In this document: positions 18,367-49,196 of the stretch, one piece after another | How positions within the stretch are numbered: position 1 is the first letter of the stretch | Layout of the letters: the number at the start of each line of letters is the position of its first letter | Assembly: GCA_963707915.1 (NCBI GenBank) | Contig: OY970178.1 | Coordinates: 1,088,001 to 1,152,000, forward strand | Direction: 5' to 3' | DNA: 64,000 nt | Source: Candidatus Eiseniibacteriota bacterium | Lineage (GTDB): Bacteria; Eisenbacteria; RBG-16-71-46 | Notes under the pieces: model-generated | What the model was told of the DNA's origin: nothing | What the model saw: the letters and a program-made list of their open reading frames with translations, nothing else | Database searches by the model: none | Made by a program: the position numbers and the translations under genes

Positions 18367-19800
18367 TCACACGCGCCGGCGGAAACGCGCCGGCAGGATG
18401 CTGAGCTGCTCCCGGTACTTCGCCACGGTCCGCCGGGCGATCTTGAGCCCCGTCTCGTGCAGGAGCTCGGCGATGCGCTGGTCGGACAACGGCTCGGTCT
18501 TGGCCTCCTCGTCGATCAGGGTCTTGATGGTGTCCCGGGCCGTCCGCGCCGAGACGTCGTCGCCGTCCTCGGTCTCCAGCCCGCTCGAGAAGAAGAACTT
18601 GAGCTCGAACACACCGCGCGGCGTCTGCACGTACTTCGCGCTGCAGACGCGGCTCACCGTGGACTCGTGCATGTCGATCTGCCGGGCGACCTGCTGCAGC
18701 GTGAGGGGCCGCAGGAACGCGATCCCCTTGTCGAAGAAGTCCCGCTGCTCGCGGATGATGCAGTTCATCACCTTGATCATGGTGCGTCGCCGTTGCTCGA
18801 TGGTCTGGATCAGCCAGCGCGCCGAGTTCAGCTTGCCCTGGATGTACTCGCGGGTCTTGACCTCGCCGGCGTTGCAGTCCGCCTTCTTCTTGCCGCGCAT
18901 CACGCCCTCGTAGGCGGCCGAGATGCGCAGCCGGGGCAGGTGGCGGTCGTTCAGCATGACCAGGTACTCGTCGTTCACGCGCTCGACCACCAGGTCGGGC
19001 ACGACGTACTTGGGGTCCTCGCTCGAGACCTGCAGCCCCGGCTTGGGGTTCAGCGTGGCGATCGCGTCGGCCCCCGCCTGGACCTCCTCCGGCGTGACCT
19101 TCAGGATGCGCGCGATCTCCGGGAAGCGCCGGTTCACCAGGTTGTTGAACTGGTCGTGGATGAGCTTCCACGACAGCGTGTCGCGCTCGTTGCGCGCCTC
19201 GAGCTGGATGAGCAGGCACTCCCGCAGGTCCCGTGCCCCGACCCCCACCGGCTCGAGCGCCTGGATGACCTTCAGGATGCGCTCGCAGAGCTCGAGCGGC
19301 TGTCCGGTGGCCTGCGCCACGTCCTCGAGCGGGGTCGCCAGCCAGCCGCGCTCGTCCAGCGAGCCGATCAGGAACTCGGCCAGCAGCAGGTCGCGCGGCG
19401 AGAGCGACAGGAAGTGGAGCTGCTCGAGCAGGCTCTCGGCCAGCGAGGTGCGCGTGACCGGCACCTTCTCGAGGAATTCCGCCGAGGTCTCCTGCTGGGG
19501 GACGTAGACCCGGTCGAGCGCCCCGTCCTGCATGTACTCCGACCAGTCGATGGGATCCTCCTCGGTCGGATCCTCCGCCTCCTCGTTGGCCTTCTCCTCG
19601 GGCGAGTCCTCCTTGGCGAGGTCCTCGTTCTCGGTGACCTCGTCCACCTCCTCCAGCAGGGGGTTCTGGATCATCTCCTGCTTGAGGATCTGCTGGAGCT
19701 CGAGGGTCGGCACCTGCAGCAGCTTGAGCGCCTGCTGCAGCCGCGGGGTCATGATGAGAGCCGGCCGCAGGCTCAGGTTCAGCGAGGGTTTCATTTCCAT
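18367..19800 (-). CDS. rpoN: RNA polymerase sigma-54 factor
   Basis: MTPRLQQALKLLQ, GVGARDLRECL, HESTVSR, RpoN box ARRTVAKYRE. Confidence 0.98.
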   Translation of the reverse strand: MEMKPSLNLSLRPALIMTPRLQQALKLLQVPTLELQQILKQEMIQNPLLEEVDEVTENEDLAKEDSPEEKANEEAEDPTEEDPIDWSEYMQDGALDRVYVPQQETSAEFLEKVPVTRTSLAESLLEQLHFLSLSPRDLLLAEFLIGSLDERGWLATPLEDVAQATGQPLELCERILKVIQALEPVGVGARDLRECLLIQLEARNERDTLSWKLIHDQFNNLVNRRFPEIARILKVTPEEVQAGADAIATLNPKPGLQVSSEDPKYVVPDLVVERVNDEYLVMLNDRHLPRLRISAAYEGVMRGKKKADCNAGEVKTREYIQGKLNSARWLIQTIEQRRRTMIKVMNCIIREQRDFFDKGIAFLRPLTLQQVARQIDMHESTVSRVCSAKYVQTPRGVFELKFFFSSGLETEDGDDVSARTARDTIKTLIDEEAKTEPLSDQRIAELLHETGLKIARRTVAKYREQLSILPARFRRRV

Positions 19801-40870: not shown

Positions 40871-41305
40871 ATGAAGAACAACGTGCGGTTCGTGTGGGTC
40901 GCGACGGCCGCGCTGGCGTTCCTCGGGCTCTCCGCCCTGGATGCCACCGCCCAGGTCAGCATCATCGTCTCGGCATCGAGCACTGCGAAGGCGTCTCCCG
41001 CACAGGTCGCGGACATGTTCGCGGGCGTGACGACGACCTGGTCCACCGGCAGCAAGGTCCAGATCGTCGACCAGCCCGACACGCCGGTCGGCAAGACCTT
41101 CTACATGAAGCTCGTGAAGCGCCCGGTCACGATCGTGAGAGCCCAGTGGACGAAGCTCTCGCTGTCGGGCCAGGGGCTCGCGCCGAAGCGCGTGGCGGAC
41201 GACGAAGCCATGAAGGACGCGGTCAAGAAGTCGCCCGGCGCGATCGGGTACATCGCCAGCAGCTCGCTGGACGCGAGCGTCAAGGAACTGGCTCGCGTCG
41301 AGTAG
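40871..41305 (+). CDS. Small single-lobe periplasmic binding protein (PstS/PBP2-like)
   Basis: Signal peptide; IIV...VADMFAG..TW..G...WTKLSLSGQG..PK...VKKSPGAIGYI. Confidence 0.78.
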   Translation: MKNNVRFVWVATAALAFLGLSALDATAQVSIIVSASSTAKASPAQVADMFAGVTTTWSTGSKVQIVDQPDTPVGKTFYMKLVKRPVTIVRAQWTKLSLSGQGLAPKRVADDEAMKDAVKKSPGAIGYIASSSLDASVKELARVE

Positions 41306-41327
41306 GCTCGTTCCCCGGATCCACCCG

Positions 41328-41358
41328 CGGGCTCCCGGCCGTGTCGGCCGGGAGCCCG
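41328..41358. terminator. Hairpin between the PBP gene and convergent rtcB
   Basis: 14 bp stem CGGGCTCCCGGCCG/CGGCCGGGAGCCCG. Confidence 0.55.
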
Positions 41359-41470
41359 TCGCGTCTCCCACGCCGGCGCGCCGTCCGTCCGCCGCGCCGT
41401 TCGCCCTTCGCCGCCACCGGCGCCGCGCCGGCCGGCGCGGCCTGCCCGCCCCGGGAGCGGAACGGGCGGC

Positions 41471-42923
<1,453 letters not shown>

Positions 42924-42957
42924 GACGGCGGGAGTCTGCGCCCGCTGGCGGGCGCGT

Positions 42958-45734
42958 TCAACCGGCCGGCGCGGCCTCCCGCAGGAACCTCCCGGTCCAC
43001 GACGCCTCGCACGCCGCGATCGCCTCCGGCGGGCCCTCGGCGACGAGCCGTCCGCCGGCCTCGCCGCCGCCGGGGCCCAGGTCCACGACCCAGTCGCTGT
43101 TGCGGATGACGTCGAGGTTGTGCTCGACCGCGATCACCGTGTCGCCGCGCGCAGTCAGGTCGTCGAGGACCTCGAGCAGGCGCTGCACGTCCGCGTAGTG
43201 GAGCCCCACGGTCGGCTCGTCCAGCAGGTAGAGGGTCGGCCCCCCGCTGCGCTCCGACAGCTCGCGGGCGATCTTGAGCCGCTGCGCCTCGCCGCCCGGA
43301 GAGCTGGGTCGCCGGCTGCCCGAGCCGGAGGTAGCCGAGCCCCACGCGTCGCAGGATGTGCAGCGCCCGGGTGAAGCGCGGCTCGGCGGCGAAGTGCTCG
43401 AAGGCCTGGTCCACGGTCAGGTCGAGGGCGTCGCGCACGTTCACCCCGCGGTAGCGCACCTCGAGCACCTCGCGGCGGAAGCGGTCCCCGCCGCAGGTGT
43501 CGCAGGGCACCAGCAGGTCGGCGAGGAAGTACATCTCGACCGTGACCCAGCCGGCGCCCTCGCAGGCCTCGCAGCGCCCGCCCGGCCGTGTTGAACGAGA
43601 AGGCGCCGTCCCTGAGCCCGCGGGCGAGCGCCGCGGGCTGGCGGGCGTACACCTCCCGCAGCGCCGCGAAGGCGCCGAGGTAGGTGACCGGGCAGGAACG
43701 CGGCGTTCGCCCGATGGGCGACTGGTCCACGAGCGCGACGCGCTTCAGCCGCTCCAGCCCGGTCACCGCCCGGTGCGTCCCCGGCGGCTCGTCGCCGGCG
43801 CCCTCGAGCGCGAGCCGTGCGGCGCGGTGGAGCACGTCCTCGACCAGGCTGCTCTTGCCCGAGCCCGACACGCCGCTCACGGCCGTGAGCCGGCCGAGCG
43901 GGAAGCGCGCGTCCACGCCCTTCAGGTTGTGGTGCGTGGCGCCCAGCACCGCCACGAAGTCCCGCGGCACGCCCGGGCGGCGCACCCGCTCGACGCGCTT
44001 CTCGCCGCGCAGGTAGCGGGCGGTGTCGGTCGCGACCCCCGCGAGCGCCGCGCCGCCCGGCCCGGCGTAGAGCAGGCACCCGCCGAGTTCGCCGGCCCCG
44101 GGCCCGAGGTCCACGACGTGGTCGGCCGCGCGCATGACCAGCGGCTCGTGCTCGACCACCACCACGGTGTTCCCGCGGTCGGCGAGGTCCCGGAGGATGG
44201 CGACGAGCCGTTCGGTGTCGCGCGGGTGGAGCCCCACCGTGGGCTCGTCCAGCACGTAGAGCGTCTCGGTCAGGTTCGCCCCCAGCGCGTTGGCCAACTC
44301 GATGCGCTGGGCCTCGCCGCCGGACAGCGTGCGGGTCGCCCGGTCGAGGGTCAGGTAGCCGAGGTCCACGCGCTCGAGGAAGCGCAGCCGCGATTCCACC
44401 TCGGCGAGCACCGGCCCGGCGACCCCGCGCTCCGCCGGCGTGAACTCGAGCCCGGCGAGCCACCGGGCGGCCGCCGAGATGGTGAGCGCGCTCACCGCGG
44501 CGATGTCCTGGCCGCCCAGCCGCACCGCGCGCGCCTCGCGCCGCAGTCGCGTCCCACCGCAGTCGGCGCACGGCAGCGCCGTCTGGTAGGCCTTGACGAG
44601 GAAGCGGTTGCCCGCCTTGTAGGACTTCTCCTTGCGGCGCTCGAGGAACGGGATGACCCCGCGGAAGCCCTCGCCGCCCTCGAGCAGGAGCCGCCGGTGC
44701 CCGGGCTCGAGCCGGTCCCACGGCTCGTCGAGGGCGATGCCCCGCTCCCGCGCGAACTTCTCGATGCGCGGCCAGGCGAGCCGACGCCAGGAACCGGCCC
44801 ACGGCTTGAGCGCCCCCTCGCGCAGGCTCTTCGAGGGATCCGGCACGATCCGGTCCACGGTGAAGGTGAGCACGTCGCCGAAGCCCCGGCACGCGGGACA
44901 GACGCCCAGCGGGCTGTTGAAGGAGAACAGGGCCGGCTCGGGGCGCAGCGCGGCGGCCCCGCAGTGGGAACACTCCCAGAGCTCGCTGCGCCGCTCCGGC
45001 GGCCCCTCCCCCCGCCACAGCTCGAGCCGGCCCTCGCCCCGGCGGAAGGCCTGCTCGCACGCTTCCGCGAGACGGGCCTCCTCGCCGCGCCGCCAGGTGA
45101 AGCGGTCCACCACGACCCGCACCTCCGCCGTGCCGCGCTTGAGCTTCGGCAGCGGATCGAGCGGGCGGACCTCGCCCGAGAGCACCACGCGCGTGTAGCC
45201 GGCGGCCAGCAGGTGGCCGGCCTGCTCCTCCCAGCCCAGGCTCTTGGCCAATCGCACGGCGGCGAGCACGAGCAGGGCATCGCCCTCGGGCCAGCCGGCC
45301 GACTCCCGCACGATGCCGGCGGGGCTGTCGGCGCGGACCGGCCGGCCACACTCGAGGCAGCTCACCTGGCCCAGCCGGGAGAAGAGCACGCGCAGGTAGT
45401 CGCTCACCTCGGTGGCCGTTCCGACCGTGGAGCGCCCGCTCCGCGCCGGGGCCGACTGGCGGATGGCGACGGCCGGCATGAGCCCGTGGATGGTGTCCAC
45501 GTCCGGCCGCGGGAGGCGGTCCAGGAATTGCCGGGCATACGTGGAGACCGACTCGACGTAGCGCCTCTGGCCCTCGGCGTAGAGCGTGTCGAAGGCGAGC
45601 GAGGACTTCCCCGAGCCGGAGACCCCGGTGATCACGCTCAGCCGGCCGCGGGGCAGGTCGAGGTCGAGGTTCTTGAGGTTGTGCTGGCGGGCGCCGCGAA
45701 TCTCGATGGCGCTCGCGGGGGCGTTCTCGGGCAA
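42958..45734 (-). CDS. uvrA: Excinuclease ABC subunit A, with one-base frameshifts near 43296 and 43582
   Basis: GARQHNLKN, two [46 protein letters not shown]; spread over three frames. Confidence 0.9.
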
Positions 45735-46052
45735 CGGGGCCTCGGATCGGCGAACGGCACGCGGCGGAGTGCGAGCCGGGTGACTATAGCACCCGCCGAC
45801 GGCGGCCGAGCCGGCCGCGGCGGTCGGGCCGGAAGACGCGAGCGGCCCGCCCATCCATGGGCGAGCCGCCGCAGGTCACTGGAGGAAATCGGCCAGCCCT
45901 AGCGCAGAGCCTCCAGCCCCTGGCCCGAACGGTTCACGACCTCGCGTTCCCGGCGAGCGGTTCGTGGACAGCACGGGCTGCACCTCTAACGATCGGGGAT
46001 TGGCCGGCATCGCCGACCAATCCCCTGAGGACGTGCCAGGTCCTGAAACGAA

Positions 46053-46121
46053 CTACTTCTTCTTCTTGGCGACCTTCTTCTTGGCGACCTTCTTCTTGGC
46101 GACCTTCTTCTTCGCTGCCAT
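46053..46121 (-). CDS. 22 aa lysine-rich micropeptide MAAKKKVAKKKVAKKKVAKKKK (not in the ORF track)
   Basis: AAGGAGGTGATC Shine-Dalgarno just upstream of ATG; TAG stop; 15 bp tandem unit encoding VAKKK. Confidence 0.8.
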   Translation of the reverse strand: MAAKKKVAKKKVAKKKVAKKKK

Positions 46122-46262
46122 TTCTGATCACCTCCTTGGATCTGATCTCGTCGGTGGAGTCCCCAACTTCACGCTGGGACACTGTTGGCCGCCGCCTTGG
46201 GCGCGGCCCTGGCGGCCCGGCGGAGTTCCCGAGAACTCCACTTGGCCTTGCATTTCAATGTA

Positions 46263-46278
46263 AGCACGTTCCATTCCA
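46263..46278 (-). promoter_or_regulatory. Putative sigma54 -24/-12 promoter for the micropeptide
   Basis: TGGAATGGAACGTGCT (GG-N10-GC) in an AT-richer intergenic region downstream of an NtrC-family gene. Confidence 0.5.
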
Positions 46279-46508
46279 CACGGCGATGGAAGTCCGGCAA
46301 ATTGAGTCCAAGTCACTGCAGCACAGCTGAATAAGCGACTCGACGTTGGCCACTCGCAGGTCGGCTCGTCCGCGTATTCGCCCGGTCGAACCGCTCTAAC
46401 CGTCAACTTAATGGCAACTTAGCCGGGACGGAGTTTGTAATCAACTGCAGCACAATAGCTTGCAAGTCGATGTCCACTTCCTTGTGGGTGTCAAGATACT
46501 GGACGATT

Positions 46509-47864
46509 TCAGCTCTCCTCGAGCGTCCGCGAGCGTCGCAGTTTCTCGATGAGACCCTGCCGCGAGATGCCCAGCACGCGCGCGGCGCGGCTCTTGTTCC
46601 CCGCGGTGAGCCGCAACACCTCGGCGATGTGGTCCGCCTCGATCTGCGCCAGGGTGGGAAGCGCGATGGAGTGGTCCGAGGCCAGCCGCCGGCCGGCGAC
46701 CTCCGCCGGGAGGTGATCCACCTCCAGCTGTCGCCCGTCCTCGAGGAGCACGACGCGCTCGATGAGGTTGCGCAGTTCGCGCACGTTGCCGGGCCAGCGG
46801 TAGGACAACAGGAGGCGCGCCGCGTCGGGCGCGATGTCGCGGAAGTCCTTCTGGAACTGGCGGGAGAACTCGCGCATGAAGTGCCGGGCCAGCAGCAGGA
46901 CGTCGTCTCCGCGCTCGCTGAGCGGCGGCAGGTGGATGCTGACGACCTTGAGGCGGAAGTACAGGTCGCTGCGGAAACGCCCGTTCCGGATGTCGCTCTC
47001 GAGGTCCTTGTTCGATGCCGCCACGATGCGGATGTCGACGCTGATGTCCTCGGCGCCGCCGACGCGCTTGAAATTGCGGTAGTCGATGAAGCGGAGGAGC
47101 TTGGCCTGGGTCGGCATCGACATGTCCGCCACCTCGTCCAGGAAGAGCGTGCCGCCATCGCAGAGCTCGACCAGGCCCTTCTTCAGGTCCCCGGCGTCCG
47201 TGAAGGCGCCACGCTCGTGCCCGAACAGCTCGTTCTCGAGCAGGGTCTCCTGGAACGAGGAGCAATTGACCTCCATGAGCGGGGCCTGGGCCCGGTCGCT
47301 GCGGTAATGAATCGCCCGTGCGACCAGTTCCTTGCCGGTCCCGCTCTCCCCGGTGATGAACACCGAGGTCGCCTGGCTGCGCACCACCTTCTCGATGAGG
47401 TCCCGCACCTCCTTCATGGGCCCGGAGGTGCCGATGATCTCCTCCCCGGTGTAGCGGCGCTTCTCCTTGCGGCGGTAGAGGTCGAGCTCGTTGGCCTGGC
47501 GGAAGGTCCGGGCGGCCGCTTCGACCGCCATCTCGATGTCCTCCTTCTCGTAGGGCTTCCGGAGGAAGTCGCAGGCCCCGAGTTTCATGGCCTCGACCGC
47601 CGACTGGACGTCGCCGTAGGCGGTGATGACGATGACCTGGACCAGCGAGTCCATCTGGCGCACGCGCCGCAGCACCGAGAGGCCGTCGGTGTCCGGCAGG
47701 CGCATGTCGAGGATGATGACCTGCGGGCGCACGCTCTCGACCTTGTCGAGGCCCTCCGCCCCGGTGCTCGCGCCCTCCACCAGGTAGCCCTTCTCGCGCA
47801 ACACGCGGGACAACGACTTGCGGATGAGGATCTCGTCGTCCACCACGAGCACGGTGTTCTTCAC
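46509..47864 (-). CDS. NtrC-family sigma54-dependent response regulator
   Basis: VLVVDDE receiver, GESGTGKE, ELFGHERGAFTDA, FLDEV, WPGNVREL, HTH NKSRAARVLGISR. Confidence 0.95.
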   Translation of the reverse strand: MKNTVLVVDDEILIRKSLSRVLREKGYLVEGASTGAEGLDKVESVRPQVIILDMRLPDTDGLSVLRRVRQMDSLVQVIVITAYGDVQSAVEAMKLGACDFLRKPYEKEDIEMAVEAAARTFRQANELDLYRRKEKRRYTGEEIIGTSGPMKEVRDLIEKVVRSQATSVFITGESGTGKELVARAIHYRSDRAQAPLMEVNCSSFQETLLENELFGHERGAFTDAGDLKKGLVELCDGGTLFLDEVADMSMPTQAKLLRFIDYRNFKRVGGAEDISVDIRIVAASNKDLESDIRNGRFRSDLYFRLKVVSIHLPPLSERGDDVLLLARHFMREFSRQFQKDFRDIAPDAARLLLSYRWPGNVRELRNLIERVVLLEDGRQLEVDHLPAEVAGRRLASDHSIALPTLAQIEADHIAEVLRLTAGNKSRAARVLGISRQGLIEKLRRSRTLEES

Positions 47865-47868
47865 GAGC

Positions 47869-48993
47869 CTAGTCCTCCGCCGGCTCGGGAGCGCCCGGCG
47901 GCTCCGCCGGGACCGGGAAGGAGACCCGCAACGTCGCCCCGCCACCCGCGTTGTTCTTGGCGGTGATCACGCCGCCGACCTCGCGCACGATCTGCAGGGA
48001 GATGGGCAGGCCGAGCCCGGTGCCCATGGAGCGCGTCGTGAAGAAGGGGTCGAAGATCTTCTCCATGAGCTCCCGGGGGATGCCCACGCCGGTGTCCCGG
48101 AAGGAGACGTCCACCACCGAGCGCCGGGTGCGGTAGCGCCGCACTCCCAGCATGACGTGCAGCTCGCCCCCCTGGGGCATGGCCTGCACGGCGTTCAGGC
48201 AGAGATTGAGGAAGACCTGCTGGGTGAGGTCCGGGTCCGCGTAGACCAGCGGGACCTCCTCGGCCACCTCGGCGTAGTCCTTGAACAGCGTCACCTGGGC
48301 GTCCCCCAGCTGCAGCTCGAGCAGGTCGAGGGTCTTCTCGAGCACCTGGCGGAGGGAGCACGCCTGGGGGCGGGCGGCGGGCGGGCGGGCGAACATGAGC
48401 AGCCCGGTGATGATCTGCTCGATGCGGTCCAGCTCCTTGATGACGTCCTCGAGGTCCTCGCGCCGGGCGTCGTTGGGCTTGAACTTCGAGCCCACGTACT
48501 GGACCGTGGTGCGGATGCCGGTCAGCGGGTTGCGGATCTCGTGCGCGACGTAGGCCGACAGCTCGCCCAGCGAGACCAGCCGGTCGATGTTCTTCTGGAA
48601 CTCGCCATCCTCGCTCTCGGAGGTGGCCTCCGCCATCACCAGCGAGCCGGTCAGGACGCCGTCCTCGTCGCGCAGCGGCAGCGACTCGGCCTTGAGCGTC
48701 AGCTCGCGGCCTTCCGCCTCGATGCGGAACTCGCGCGGCTCCCGCGAGGCGCCCTTCAACCAGCGCGCGTCGGCCCCGGGGAACAGGCGCCCGGCTGGCA
48801 ACCCCAGCAGTCCGCCCGGCTCGACGGCGAACAACTCCTCGATCCGGCGGTTGTTGTACGTGACGCGACGCTCACGATCGAGCGCCACGACCCCCTGTTC
48901 CAGCGCGTCCAGCACCTGCGAGGGCCACGGGATCGGCCGCGACGCGGGCTCGGACTCCGCCGGGCGTGCGGGAGCTTCGTTACGCGTGCTCAT
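47869..48993 (-). CDS. Cytoplasmic PAS-domain sensor histidine kinase
   Basis: PAS-like N-terminus, AHEIRNPL, NLCLNAVQAM, DTGVGI, FDPFFTT, GTGLGL; no TM segment from ATG 48993. Confidence 0.93.
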   Translation of the reverse strand: MSTRNEAPARPAESEPASRPIPWPSQVLDALEQGVVALDRERRVTYNNRRIEELFAVEPGGLLGLPAGRLFPGADARWLKGASREPREFRIEAEGRELTLKAESLPLRDEDGVLTGSLVMAEATSESEDGEFQKNIDRLVSLGELSAYVAHEIRNPLTGIRTTVQYVGSKFKPNDARREDLEDVIKELDRIEQIITGLLMFARPPAARPQACSLRQVLEKTLDLLELQLGDAQVTLFKDYAEVAEEVPLVYADPDLTQQVFLNLCLNAVQAMPQGGELHVMLGVRRYRTRRSVVDVSFRDTGVGIPRELMEKIFDPFFTTRSMGTGLGLPISLQIVREVGGVITAKNNAGGGATLRVSFPVPAEPPGAPEPAED

Positions 48994-49117
48994 CGGCCCT
49001 CCGCGGGAGAAACCTACGGTGCGAACGGAGAGGTAGCACACGCCGCCCACGCAGGCAACGGAAGAGGCGACGACGAGCACCCGCGCGACCCCGGCCCGCG
49101 CGGGTGGGACCGTCTGG

Positions 49118-49146
49118 TTGAGCGCGCCGGAGGCGGCTGGTAGAAT
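49118..49146 (+). promoter_or_regulatory. sigma70 promoter for the surA/ppiD-like gene
   Basis: TTGAGC-17 nt-TAGAAT. Confidence 0.7.
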
Positions 49147-49196
49147 GGGCGGTCCCTTCTTCCCCACGTCGTTTCGTCCCGTTCCGGGAGCCCTGA

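Follow-up and report, generated by a model that had tools for sequence, protein, structure and literature searches.

A conserved lysine-repeat micro-gene beside a two-component system of Eisenbacteria, a possible inducible micro-histone

Described polycations and the Eisenbacteria micro-gene

Lys-rich repeat proteins of bacteria are represented by Hc2, which binds DNA and comprises 165-237 amino acids depending on the number of its Lys-rich pentamers (accessible part of PMC2848022), and by AlgP, a Lys-rich H1-like protein which spaces polyphosphate (polyP) granules in Pseudomonas aeruginosa (accessible part of PMC9239181). In this study, an unannotated micro-gene for a peptide of 22 residues was analysed, which is located in a stretch of 64,000 nucleotides (the window; positions 1,088,001 to 1,152,000 of contig OY970178.1, assembly GCA_963707915.1) of Candidatus Eiseniibacteriota bacterium. 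Judged from its conservation, the open reading frame (ORF) is a real protein-coding gene under purifying selection, and it appears to be the smallest, local version of a family of Lys/Arg-rich repeat proteins which extends over the phylum and ranges from 13 to 227 residues, its members being encoded in the same place and behind the same regulator. By analogy, its product may be an inducible micro-histone with the function of neutralising and compacting DNA and probably also RNA, a reading to which we assign a probability of about 0.5. The accessible parts of the literature on Eisenbacteria, on Lys-rich small proteins and on H1-like proteins, AlgP and Hc2 contained no description of the micro-gene or of the module to which it may belong.

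The closest described system is Hc2 (HctB; PF07382, NF038052). Common features are the Lys/Ala-rich pentamer repeats, the lack of a folded domain and the variation of length by repeat number, in this case of (V/A)AKKK units (17-27 residues in the order, 13-227 across the phylum); stage- or signal-dependent expression would be a further likeness, and HC2 is the best Pfam match of the long Eisenbacteria forms. However, the 22-mer itself has no match and is 7-10 times shorter, and the long forms remain below the cut-offs. Furthermore, the Eisenbacteria gene is putatively under sigma-54 two-component control, possesses a conserved 3' hairpin and belongs to an unrelated, free-living phylum. AlgP and the Burkholderia-type H1-like proteins (NF038053) are likewise bacterial Lys/Ala repeat polycations, but with 30.3 bits the best long form stays below the cut-off of 80, and no match was obtained with the 22-mer. 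The Eisenbacteria gene also differs from the AlgP type in its micro size, its dedicated regulator and its KKKxA repeats; the AlgP-type repeat is KPAA. With the C-terminal tail of the eukaryotic linker histone H1, for which charge-driven DNA condensation is the presumed mode of action, the peptide shares the composition of Lys, Ala and Thr/Ser/Pro and the intrinsic disorder. It lacks the globular winged-helix domain, and the resemblance is one of composition only, not of homology.

Two further groups have to be compared. The tiny ribosomal proteins bS22, bL37, Thx and eL41 are very basic, consist of 24-33 residues and are often unannotated. Their lengths are fixed and their R/K patterns specific, whereas the family described here ranges from 13 to 227 residues and matches no ribosomal model, and its micro-peptide is Lys-only and encoded behind a sigma-54-type promoter. 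Transcripts of the crcZ/cbrB type share with the locus a kinase, an NtrC-type activator, a sigma-54 promoter and a short structured transcript with a terminator; crcZ reportedly lies downstream of cbrB and is said to be tied to CbrB and RpoN. The Eisenbacteria transcript differs by its selected ORF and its maximal Shine-Dalgarno sequence (SD); a search of the genome yielded no Hfq, and the transcript contains no A-rich Hfq sponge motifs besides the Lys codons.

The micro-ORF, its conservation and the long forms

The host genome consists of a single contig (C1; 3,623,634 bases, 72% G+C, 94.8% complete). The ORF (46121..46053 of the window, minus strand), which encodes MAAKKKVAKKKVAKKKVAKKKK and ends with TAG, reads ATG GCA GCG (AAG)3 GTC GCC ... 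TAG. Its product contains 13 Lys (59%) and no Arg in 22 residues and has a net charge of about +13. In long ORFs with high G+C at third codon positions (high GC3) of this genome, Lys accounts for 1.8% and Arg for 10.4% of 651,867 codons, and the peptide is therefore a strong compositional outlier. The exclusive use of AAG in this single copy is unremarkable, given that 11,603 of the 11,872 Lys codons (97.7%) in such ORFs are AAG. The ATG is located 4 nt downstream of the SD AAGGAGGTGATC (46137..46126, minus strand), a perfect 12-nt complement of the anti-SD, because the 3' end of the host's own 16S rRNA reads ...GGATCACCTCCTTTCT. This exact 12-mer has two copies in the genome, one in front of the micro-gene and the other within the rDNA; of the 30 occurrences of GGAGGTGAT, only about four have a start codon at most 10 nt downstream (judged by eye). 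Gene callers generally skip ORFs shorter than 90 nt. No Pfam or NCBIfam family matched the 22-mer at E ≤ 1, and the NCBIfam models of ribosomal proteins gave no match either. Elsewhere in the genome (C1:685625, plus strand, outside the window), a very basic ORF of 32 residues (GMGSGKKRKRKKIATHKRKKRLRKNRHKKRIR) was noticed, which we take to resemble the tiny ribosomal protein bS22. An earlier sequence-only reading of this DNA had described a hidden ORF of 22 residues with 13 lysines, all AAG, behind a 12-nt sequence complementary to the 3' end of 16S rRNA and downstream of an NtrC-type gene. All of these elements were located on the minus strand, the complement agreed with the host 16S rRNA sequence, and the gene upstream (47945..46509) was assigned to the NtrC family by Pfam and NCBIfam.

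The region was conserved among relatives. A blastn search with 46420..45900 gave a match in 40/40 relatives at the loose threshold of E ≤ 10; in the best matches the shared core comprised the SD, the ORF and the following 60 nt, and within the genus it extended up to the promoter. A K-rich ORF behind an SD of the GGAGGTGAT type was present in 35 of 42 loci of relatives. The remaining seven were two loci with GTG starts, one with a GTG start and a slightly altered SD, one truncated where its contig stops and three representing other families or other K-rich genes. The search for SD-led micro-ORFs downstream of orthologous NtrC genes, which the sequence-only reading had recommended as a check, yielded a K-rich ORF in 64/80 activator-anchored loci on GenBank-derived contigs. 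Among the 16 misses, 11 contigs stop less than 360 nt past the activator and two stop within the ORF; the others are due to one GTG start, one long form and one transposase-like ORF.

At the level of the order, 122 partly redundant and phylogenetically related loci were pooled, which derive in part from incomplete metagenome-assembled genomes (MAGs). ORF and hairpin occurred together in 100 of these 122 loci, with 61 distinct ORF sequences of 17 (1 sequence), 19 (1), 21 (22), 22 (25), 23 (2), 26 (3) or 27 codons (7). They start with ATG (59) or GTG (2) and end with TAA (45) or TAG (16), and an SD was found 5-9 nt upstream of the start in 99/100 loci (GGAGGTGA in 88, GGGGGTGA in 11). The lengths of the 61 distinct ORFs differ always by whole codons, none of them contains an internal stop, and third positions are free to vary in the codons for Ala, Thr and Gly. 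The pairwise ratio of nonsynonymous to synonymous differences (pN/pS) was 0.39 for ORFs of 21 codons (n=22), 0.28 for 22 codons (n=25) and 0.40 for 27 codons (n=7); these are rough values, as the pairs are non-independent and sequences of equal length were compared without alignment. These 61 intact versions under apparent purifying selection bear out the earlier proposal of a hidden coding gene. Lys was never encoded by AAA (0/795 Lys codons in the 61 distinct ORFs vs 2.3% AAA genome-wide in the host). Related sequences of this kind are no clean test, but they hint at selection for speed, on the RNA or against runs of A.

On the plus strand, an ORF of 157 codons (45857..46330) overlaps the micro-gene and is open in many relatives, and antisense frames of 85-266 codons from stop to stop occur in 75/75 distinct loci. 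At 72% G+C, such long open antisense frames are expected. Outside the genus, the similarity of the antisense translations is reduced to short pieces in differing frames, which are confined to the micro-ORF and the hairpin.

Some loci of the relatives deserve mention on their own. The genome of relative G025 (family f2) contains, in addition to a syntenic copy of 21 residues, a second K-rich ORF of 40 residues (MAKKKAAKKKVAKKKVAKKKVAKKAAKKKVAKKKARKAKK; L026:2501-2623, minus strand) with a weaker SD. As a query, it gave no hit among 2,923 candidates of 22-70 residues at E ≤ 0.01, a result which is uninformative for such a low-complexity sequence. In L081 (4365-6470), a transposase-like protein follows the activator in place of the micro-gene; presumably it is similar to the IS1595 family. 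Moreover, seven MAG records (L049, L053, L057, L083, L089, L110 and L113) carry an Eisenbacteria-type locus under foreign titles (Saccharimonadaceae, Udaeobacter, Limnocylindria, Verrucomicrobiia, Methylomirabilota, Gemmatimonadales and Saccharimonadales) and are probably mislabelled or chimeric bins.

Beyond the order, an orthologue of the activator was detected in 186/206 genomes of the phylum (E ≤ 1e-120), and the DNA 3' of it was analysed for 20 genomes, which represent 11 further families of Eisenbacteria. In all 20 distant loci, a K/R-rich ORF of 13-227 residues with an SD of the GGAGG/GGGGG type follows the activator, at a distance of 0.6-0.8 kb or, in L142, of about 2.8 kb. With starts chosen heuristically, the products comprise 13 residues in family f5, 16 in f18, 28-30 in f16, 35-45 in f7, 37 in f17, 76-101 in f9, 96 in f10, 96-108 in f15, 98 in f13, 99-154 in f11, 101 in f6 and 227 in f12. 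The repeats in f11 and f12 are Arg-rich (RKKAT/RKKAV); therefore, it is a basic protein that is conserved and not an (AAG)n RNA. The earlier reading had also pointed to a likeness to Lys/Ala repeat proteins, which holds with regard to position and composition, in that long forms of the same locus match HC2 and H1-like models below the cut-offs. Three of five long forms matched Pfam PF07382 (HC2; 27.8, 18.2 and 32.7 bits, cut-off 40), the NCBIfam Hc2 model NF038052 gave 16.6 and 14.4 bits (cut-off 135), and four of five matched the H1-like model NF038053 (12.6-30.3 bits, cut-off 80). On sequence grounds, such scores are to be taken as resemblance and not as membership. A protein-cluster look-up with a long form returned only unnamed K-rich clusters, one of which carries HC2 on 35% of its members, a lead of low recognition only. 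The long forms (L128-L133, L039) often carry a short hydrophobic, proline-containing C-terminal tail (DLPSIFSM, ELPSIFTM, MAPMEMPKPF, MPALPPL or MEPPITIL), which is absent from the micro forms and could be a docking or degradation tag.

Regulatory genes, transcript and the invariant hairpin

The gene order of kinase, activator and micro-ORF is kept throughout the order. The NtrC-family sigma-54 activator (46509..47945, minus strand; REC, Sigma54_activat and HTH_8 domains by Pfam and NCBIfam) is presumed to be the activator of the micro-gene. The sensor histidine kinase (47869..49167, minus strand; PAS_4, HisKA and HATPase_c, by the same databases), which lies upstream of the activator in relatives, probably has its true start within this ORF. 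The gene rpoN for sigma-54 is located in the same window (18376..19764, minus strand; TIGR02395, 444 bits). About 157 nt upstream of the ATG, a sigma-54-type promoter was detected (TGGAATGGAACGTGCT; 46278..46263, minus strand) with GG at 46277-46276, GC at 46265-46264 and a predicted +1 at about 46252. The locus thus combines a -24 GG and a -12 GC at fixed spacing with rpoN in the genome and an adjacent NtrC-family activator. Motifs of the TGGCAC-N5-CTGCT type (GG-N10-GC) occurred at -124 to -165 in 20 of the 21 loci of family f1 with upstream DNA; the single locus without a match reads CGGCAC. A consensus promoter scan revealed no sigma-70-type promoter. About 120 bp upstream of the promoter, there is an imperfect inverted repeat (TAAG..TTGACGGTTAG; 46421..46396, minus strand), whose TTGACA-like core was found in 62/75 distinct upstream regions and which is present in one copy in the genome. 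It resembles an upstream activating sequence (UAS) and is a putative binding site of the NtrC-type activator.

In distant families the arrangement includes one more gene. A response-regulator gene encoding a REC domain only precedes the K/R-rich ORF in 18/20 distant loci, and in 16/20 a sigma-54-type motif is found before this gene, 445-500 nt upstream of the K/R-rich ORF. In families f2 and f3, the REC-only gene was present in 11/11 loci with enough upstream DNA, and a promoter with 11/12 consensus positions was located 40-85 nt before it in 9/11; in f1 the gene was found in 0/21 loci. Family f1 (L001-L023) has lost the REC-only gene which is kept in f2/f3 (L024-L038), and its sigma-54 promoter now directly precedes the leader of 130 nt.

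A genome-wide scan for sigma-54 motifs gave 126 sites with at least 10/12 positions, mostly inside GC-rich coding DNA, and this set is not usable as a regulon. The best-scoring motifs (C1:508819 and C1:2989596, both plus strand; 12 and 11 of 12 positions) lie outside the window before type-IV-pilin-like ORFs with the N-termini ...GFTLIELMIVV and ...GFSLIELMIVV.

The predicted RNA of about 255-260 nt begins with a structured 5' leader of about 130 nt (46251..46122, minus strand), the sequence of which is kept only within the genus, and has a predicted folding energy of -116 kcal/mol (z = -5.1). In two studies (X16 and X20), RNA libraries yielded contigs of about 94-97% identity which span 46092-46251. 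The X16 contigs (3-4 mismatches) terminate at 46248/46249, one of them running into CCC and an Illumina adapter at its end, and the X20 contig terminates at 46251. These ends, 1-4 nt from the predicted +1, are a weak hint of the 5' end of the transcript, given by contigs which reveal neither strand nor level. The word depths of the X16 leader contigs (40-433) are no measure of the expression level, and the region 46258-46400, for which X11, X16 and X20 contained no contig, is no proof of a transcript boundary. Across 45000-47500 no Rfam family reached the gathering threshold; two sub-threshold matches were obtained (E = 0.15 and 0.51).

At the 3' end, an intrinsic-terminator-like GC-rich stem-loop with a stem of 14 bp and a moderately U-rich tail is located at 46025..45995 (minus strand); the consensus scan overlooked it because the tail contains too few T. 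A GC-rich terminator stem was present in 79/79 distinct 3' regions (read by eye), and in an alignment of 27 sequences drawn from those, 6 of 10 pairs showed compensatory changes. Between ORF and terminator, a second hairpin with a stem of 4 bp and a loop of 7 nt (GGACCUGGCACGUCC, with the 15-mer GGACCTGGCACGTCC; 46043..46029, minus strand) starts 9 nt past the stop codon; across the loci this distance is 6-16 nt. Its four pairs never vary in the same alignment in which the terminator covaries. The exact 15-mer occurs once in the host genome and was found in 84/88 genomes of family f1, in 8/10 of f3, in 0/3 of f2, which have GGGCGCGTCC instead, and in 3/104 of all other families; the reversed control pattern was present in 10/206 genomes of the whole phylum. 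A related GGAY-loop-CACGTCC element with loops of 7-33 nt lies 3' of the orthologous ORF in 6/20 distant loci (f5, f11, f12 and f18), and therefore the element is an RNA hairpin which predates the order.

None of several possible roles considered for this hairpin was borne out. Pairing of the loop with 16S rRNA extends over only 8 nt (CGUGCCAG, 515 region), and five 8-mer matches of the 27-nt probe in a 10.5-kb rRNA region correspond to chance level. A mimic of the anti-SD acting on the own SD (CACGUCCU vs CACCUCCU) fails to covary with the SD where the latter takes the variant forms GGGGGUGA and GGAGGUAA. A -24 box for sigma-54 lacks a -12 GC at the needed spacing; a DNA operator is contradicted by the single exact copy in the genome and by loop lengths of 7-33 nt in distant families; and a mimic of an anticodon loop is at odds with a second loop position that is U in f1 but G in f5 and f18.

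Favoured reading and alternative explanations

According to the reading which we favour, a signal sensed by the kinase would be passed to the NtrC-type activator, which would act via the UAS-like motif and cause the sigma-54 promoter to fire. The resulting RNA of about 255-260 nt, consisting of the 130-nt leader, the maximal SD, 22 codons, the invariant hairpin and the terminator, would be translated into the Lys-rich peptide of 22 residues, which lacks a folded domain and carries a charge of about +13. Produced in large amounts, this polycation might then neutralise and compact polyanions, chiefly chromosomal DNA and probably also RNA, and this compaction may protect or silence nucleic acids in stress or dormancy. 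Motifs and gene adjacency point to dependence on sigma-54 and the activator. A sigma-54 promoter together with a dedicated two-component system argues for an inducible polycation rather than constitutive chromatin. Rapid, massive and signal-dependent production is suggested by the dedicated pair of kinase and activator, the UAS-like motif with its single copy in the genome and the maximal SD; we infer high expression on this basis. Binding and compaction of polyanions are suggested by the composition and by analogy. Oligolysine is known to condense DNA. Furthermore, a family whose members differ 17-fold in length, consist of simple repeats and lack any domain speaks for a bulk electrostatic role and against a specific binding site.

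The gene downstream of the micro-gene may also be of relevance for the target. It encodes a divergent UvrA paralogue, which was recognised by profile pieces and is split over three frames (42608..45854, minus strand; 704 + 143 + 122 bits); it probably forms a separate transcription unit. The canonical uvrA is located elsewhere (C1:658114-660876, 1400.9 bits), and with 44% identity to the canonical copy the neighbour is, by sequence, a paralogue and not the housekeeping gene. In the whole order and in 5/20 distant loci (f15, f17 and f18), an orthologue of this paralogue lies next after the K-rich gene, and the five distant copies show 46-52% identity to the paralogue vs 41-44% to canonical UvrA; the other 15 of the 20 distant loci have a different downstream gene, e.g. 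for an epimerase or an AAA ATPase. This recurrent neighbour weakly points to DNA as the target. The adjoining rtcB (41280..42923, minus strand) is split over frames as well, with RtcB profile positions 1-124 and 127-426 in separate ORFs. As the copies of the relatives are uninterrupted, the splits in the UvrA paralogue and in rtcB are attributed to assembly indel errors or recent pseudogenes.

A number of observations weigh against the interpretation as an inducible micro-histone. With regard to the transcript, the promoter of the window itself has only 9/12 consensus positions (TGGAAT.. vs TGGCAC.. in the sigma-54 consensus), an RNA-library contig of study X19 (18 mismatches) extends to 46284 and thereby beyond the predicted start, and the contigs on which the transcript is based show neither strand nor level. 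With regard to the peptide, neither HC2 nor H1-like membership is reached by score, forms of 11-16 residues may be too short to condense DNA, and the exclusive choice of Lys over Arg by the micro forms hints at a property more specific than mere charge; in addition, such a Lys-rich peptide would escape tryptic proteomics. Finally, the invariant 15-nt hairpin and the absence of AAA among the 795 Lys codons both point to a constraint at the RNA level, for which a simple polycation gives no account.

The alternative which survives best, although it is unlikely, is that the main target is the ribosome or RNA, the peptide being an inducible translation-silencing or hibernation factor, an RNA chaperone or a drain of charged tRNA-Lys. 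RNA is the dominant polyanion of the cell, tiny basic peptides such as bS22, bL37, Thx and eL41 bind rRNA, and Hc2 is said to bind RNA and to inhibit translation in vitro. The maximal SD also implies very heavy translation, which would load tRNA-Lys in a genome with 1.8% Lys. However, lengths of 13-227 residues and simple repeats are unsuited to a defined site on the ribosome, the peptide matches none of the ribosomal models of NCBIfam, the bS22-like ORF is encoded elsewhere in the genome, and the gene which recurs beside the locus codes for a DNA-binding paralogue of UvrA.

It is quite improbable that the peptide organises polyP granules in the manner of AlgP. The precedent of the Lys-rich, H1-like AlgP in P. 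aeruginosa (accessible part of PMC9239181) speaks for this function, and polyP formation as a starvation response would be compatible with NtrC-type control. In none of the loci read, however, does ppk or another polyP gene adjoin, the long forms remain under the H1-like cut-offs, and the present data do not separate polyP from nucleic acids as a ligand.

Equally improbable is a transcript which acts chiefly as a regulatory RNA from the sigma-54 promoter, with the hairpin as seed or protein site and the peptide as a secondary product of a dual-function RNA. This explanation would account for the hairpin, which is invariant (84/88 in f1, 8/10 in f3) beside a covarying terminator and has GGAY...CACGUCC relatives in 6/20 distant loci, for the frozen third positions of the Lys codons and for the stable fold of the whole RNA, and it has a parallel in crcZ. 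On the other hand, the ORF is under purifying selection and provided with a maximal SD, the orthologous ORFs reach 227 residues and switch to Arg codons, no Rfam family was found above gathering, and no complementary target was detected beyond the chance-level match of 8 nt to 16S rRNA. Hfq (PF17209) was not found in the host genome, which is 94.8% complete; this and the selected ORF also argue against an Hfq-dependent, CrcZ-like sponge.

A leader peptide whose Lys codons attenuate transcription into the gene of the UvrA paralogue is very unlikely. A short ORF rich in one codon, followed by a hairpin, a terminator and a gene on the same strand, has the outline of such an element, but orthologues of up to 227 residues, the variable spacing of 6-16 nt between stop and hairpin and the different downstream gene in 15/20 distant loci do not fit. 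Neither alternative pairings nor a lysine-related downstream operon was found, the UvrA paralogue having no link to lysine supply; as the terminator arms vary and the hairpin is invariant, a conserved pairing of the antiterminator type is precluded. A chance ORF, or the plus-strand ORF of 157 codons as the real gene, is scarcely credible despite the frequency of long open frames at 72% G+C, since the antisense similarity breaks up outside the genus and the SD, start, stop, promoter and terminator are all oriented on the minus strand and conserved.

The inducible micro-histone might also be part of a larger unit. Only tentatively, and with considerable doubt, we propose a phylum-wide stress module of Eisenbacteria, in which a PAS kinase, an NtrC-type activator, a sigma-54 promoter, a REC-only protein, which was found in most families, a Lys-repeat polycation and a dosage-controlling hairpin in the 3' untranslated region would act together with the UvrA paralogue to compact and guard the DNA in dormancy, as an example of a class of inducible micro-histones which would be widespread but has escaped annotation. 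If so, the polycation would be a genetically encoded 'polyamine', the length of which has been tuned by evolution from 227 to 13 residues.

Within the module, a dedicated two-component system would have a single, simple and assayable output, and the series of 13-227 residues at one locus is a natural experiment on the amount of polycation needed by a cell. The invariant 3' hairpin is a candidate for a new RNA element. If the favoured reading is true, an inducible, signal-controlled micro-form of 13-27 residues would be added to the bacterial H1-like proteins, in a phylum without a cultured member, and it would show that annotation systematically misses genes for micro-polycations of this kind.

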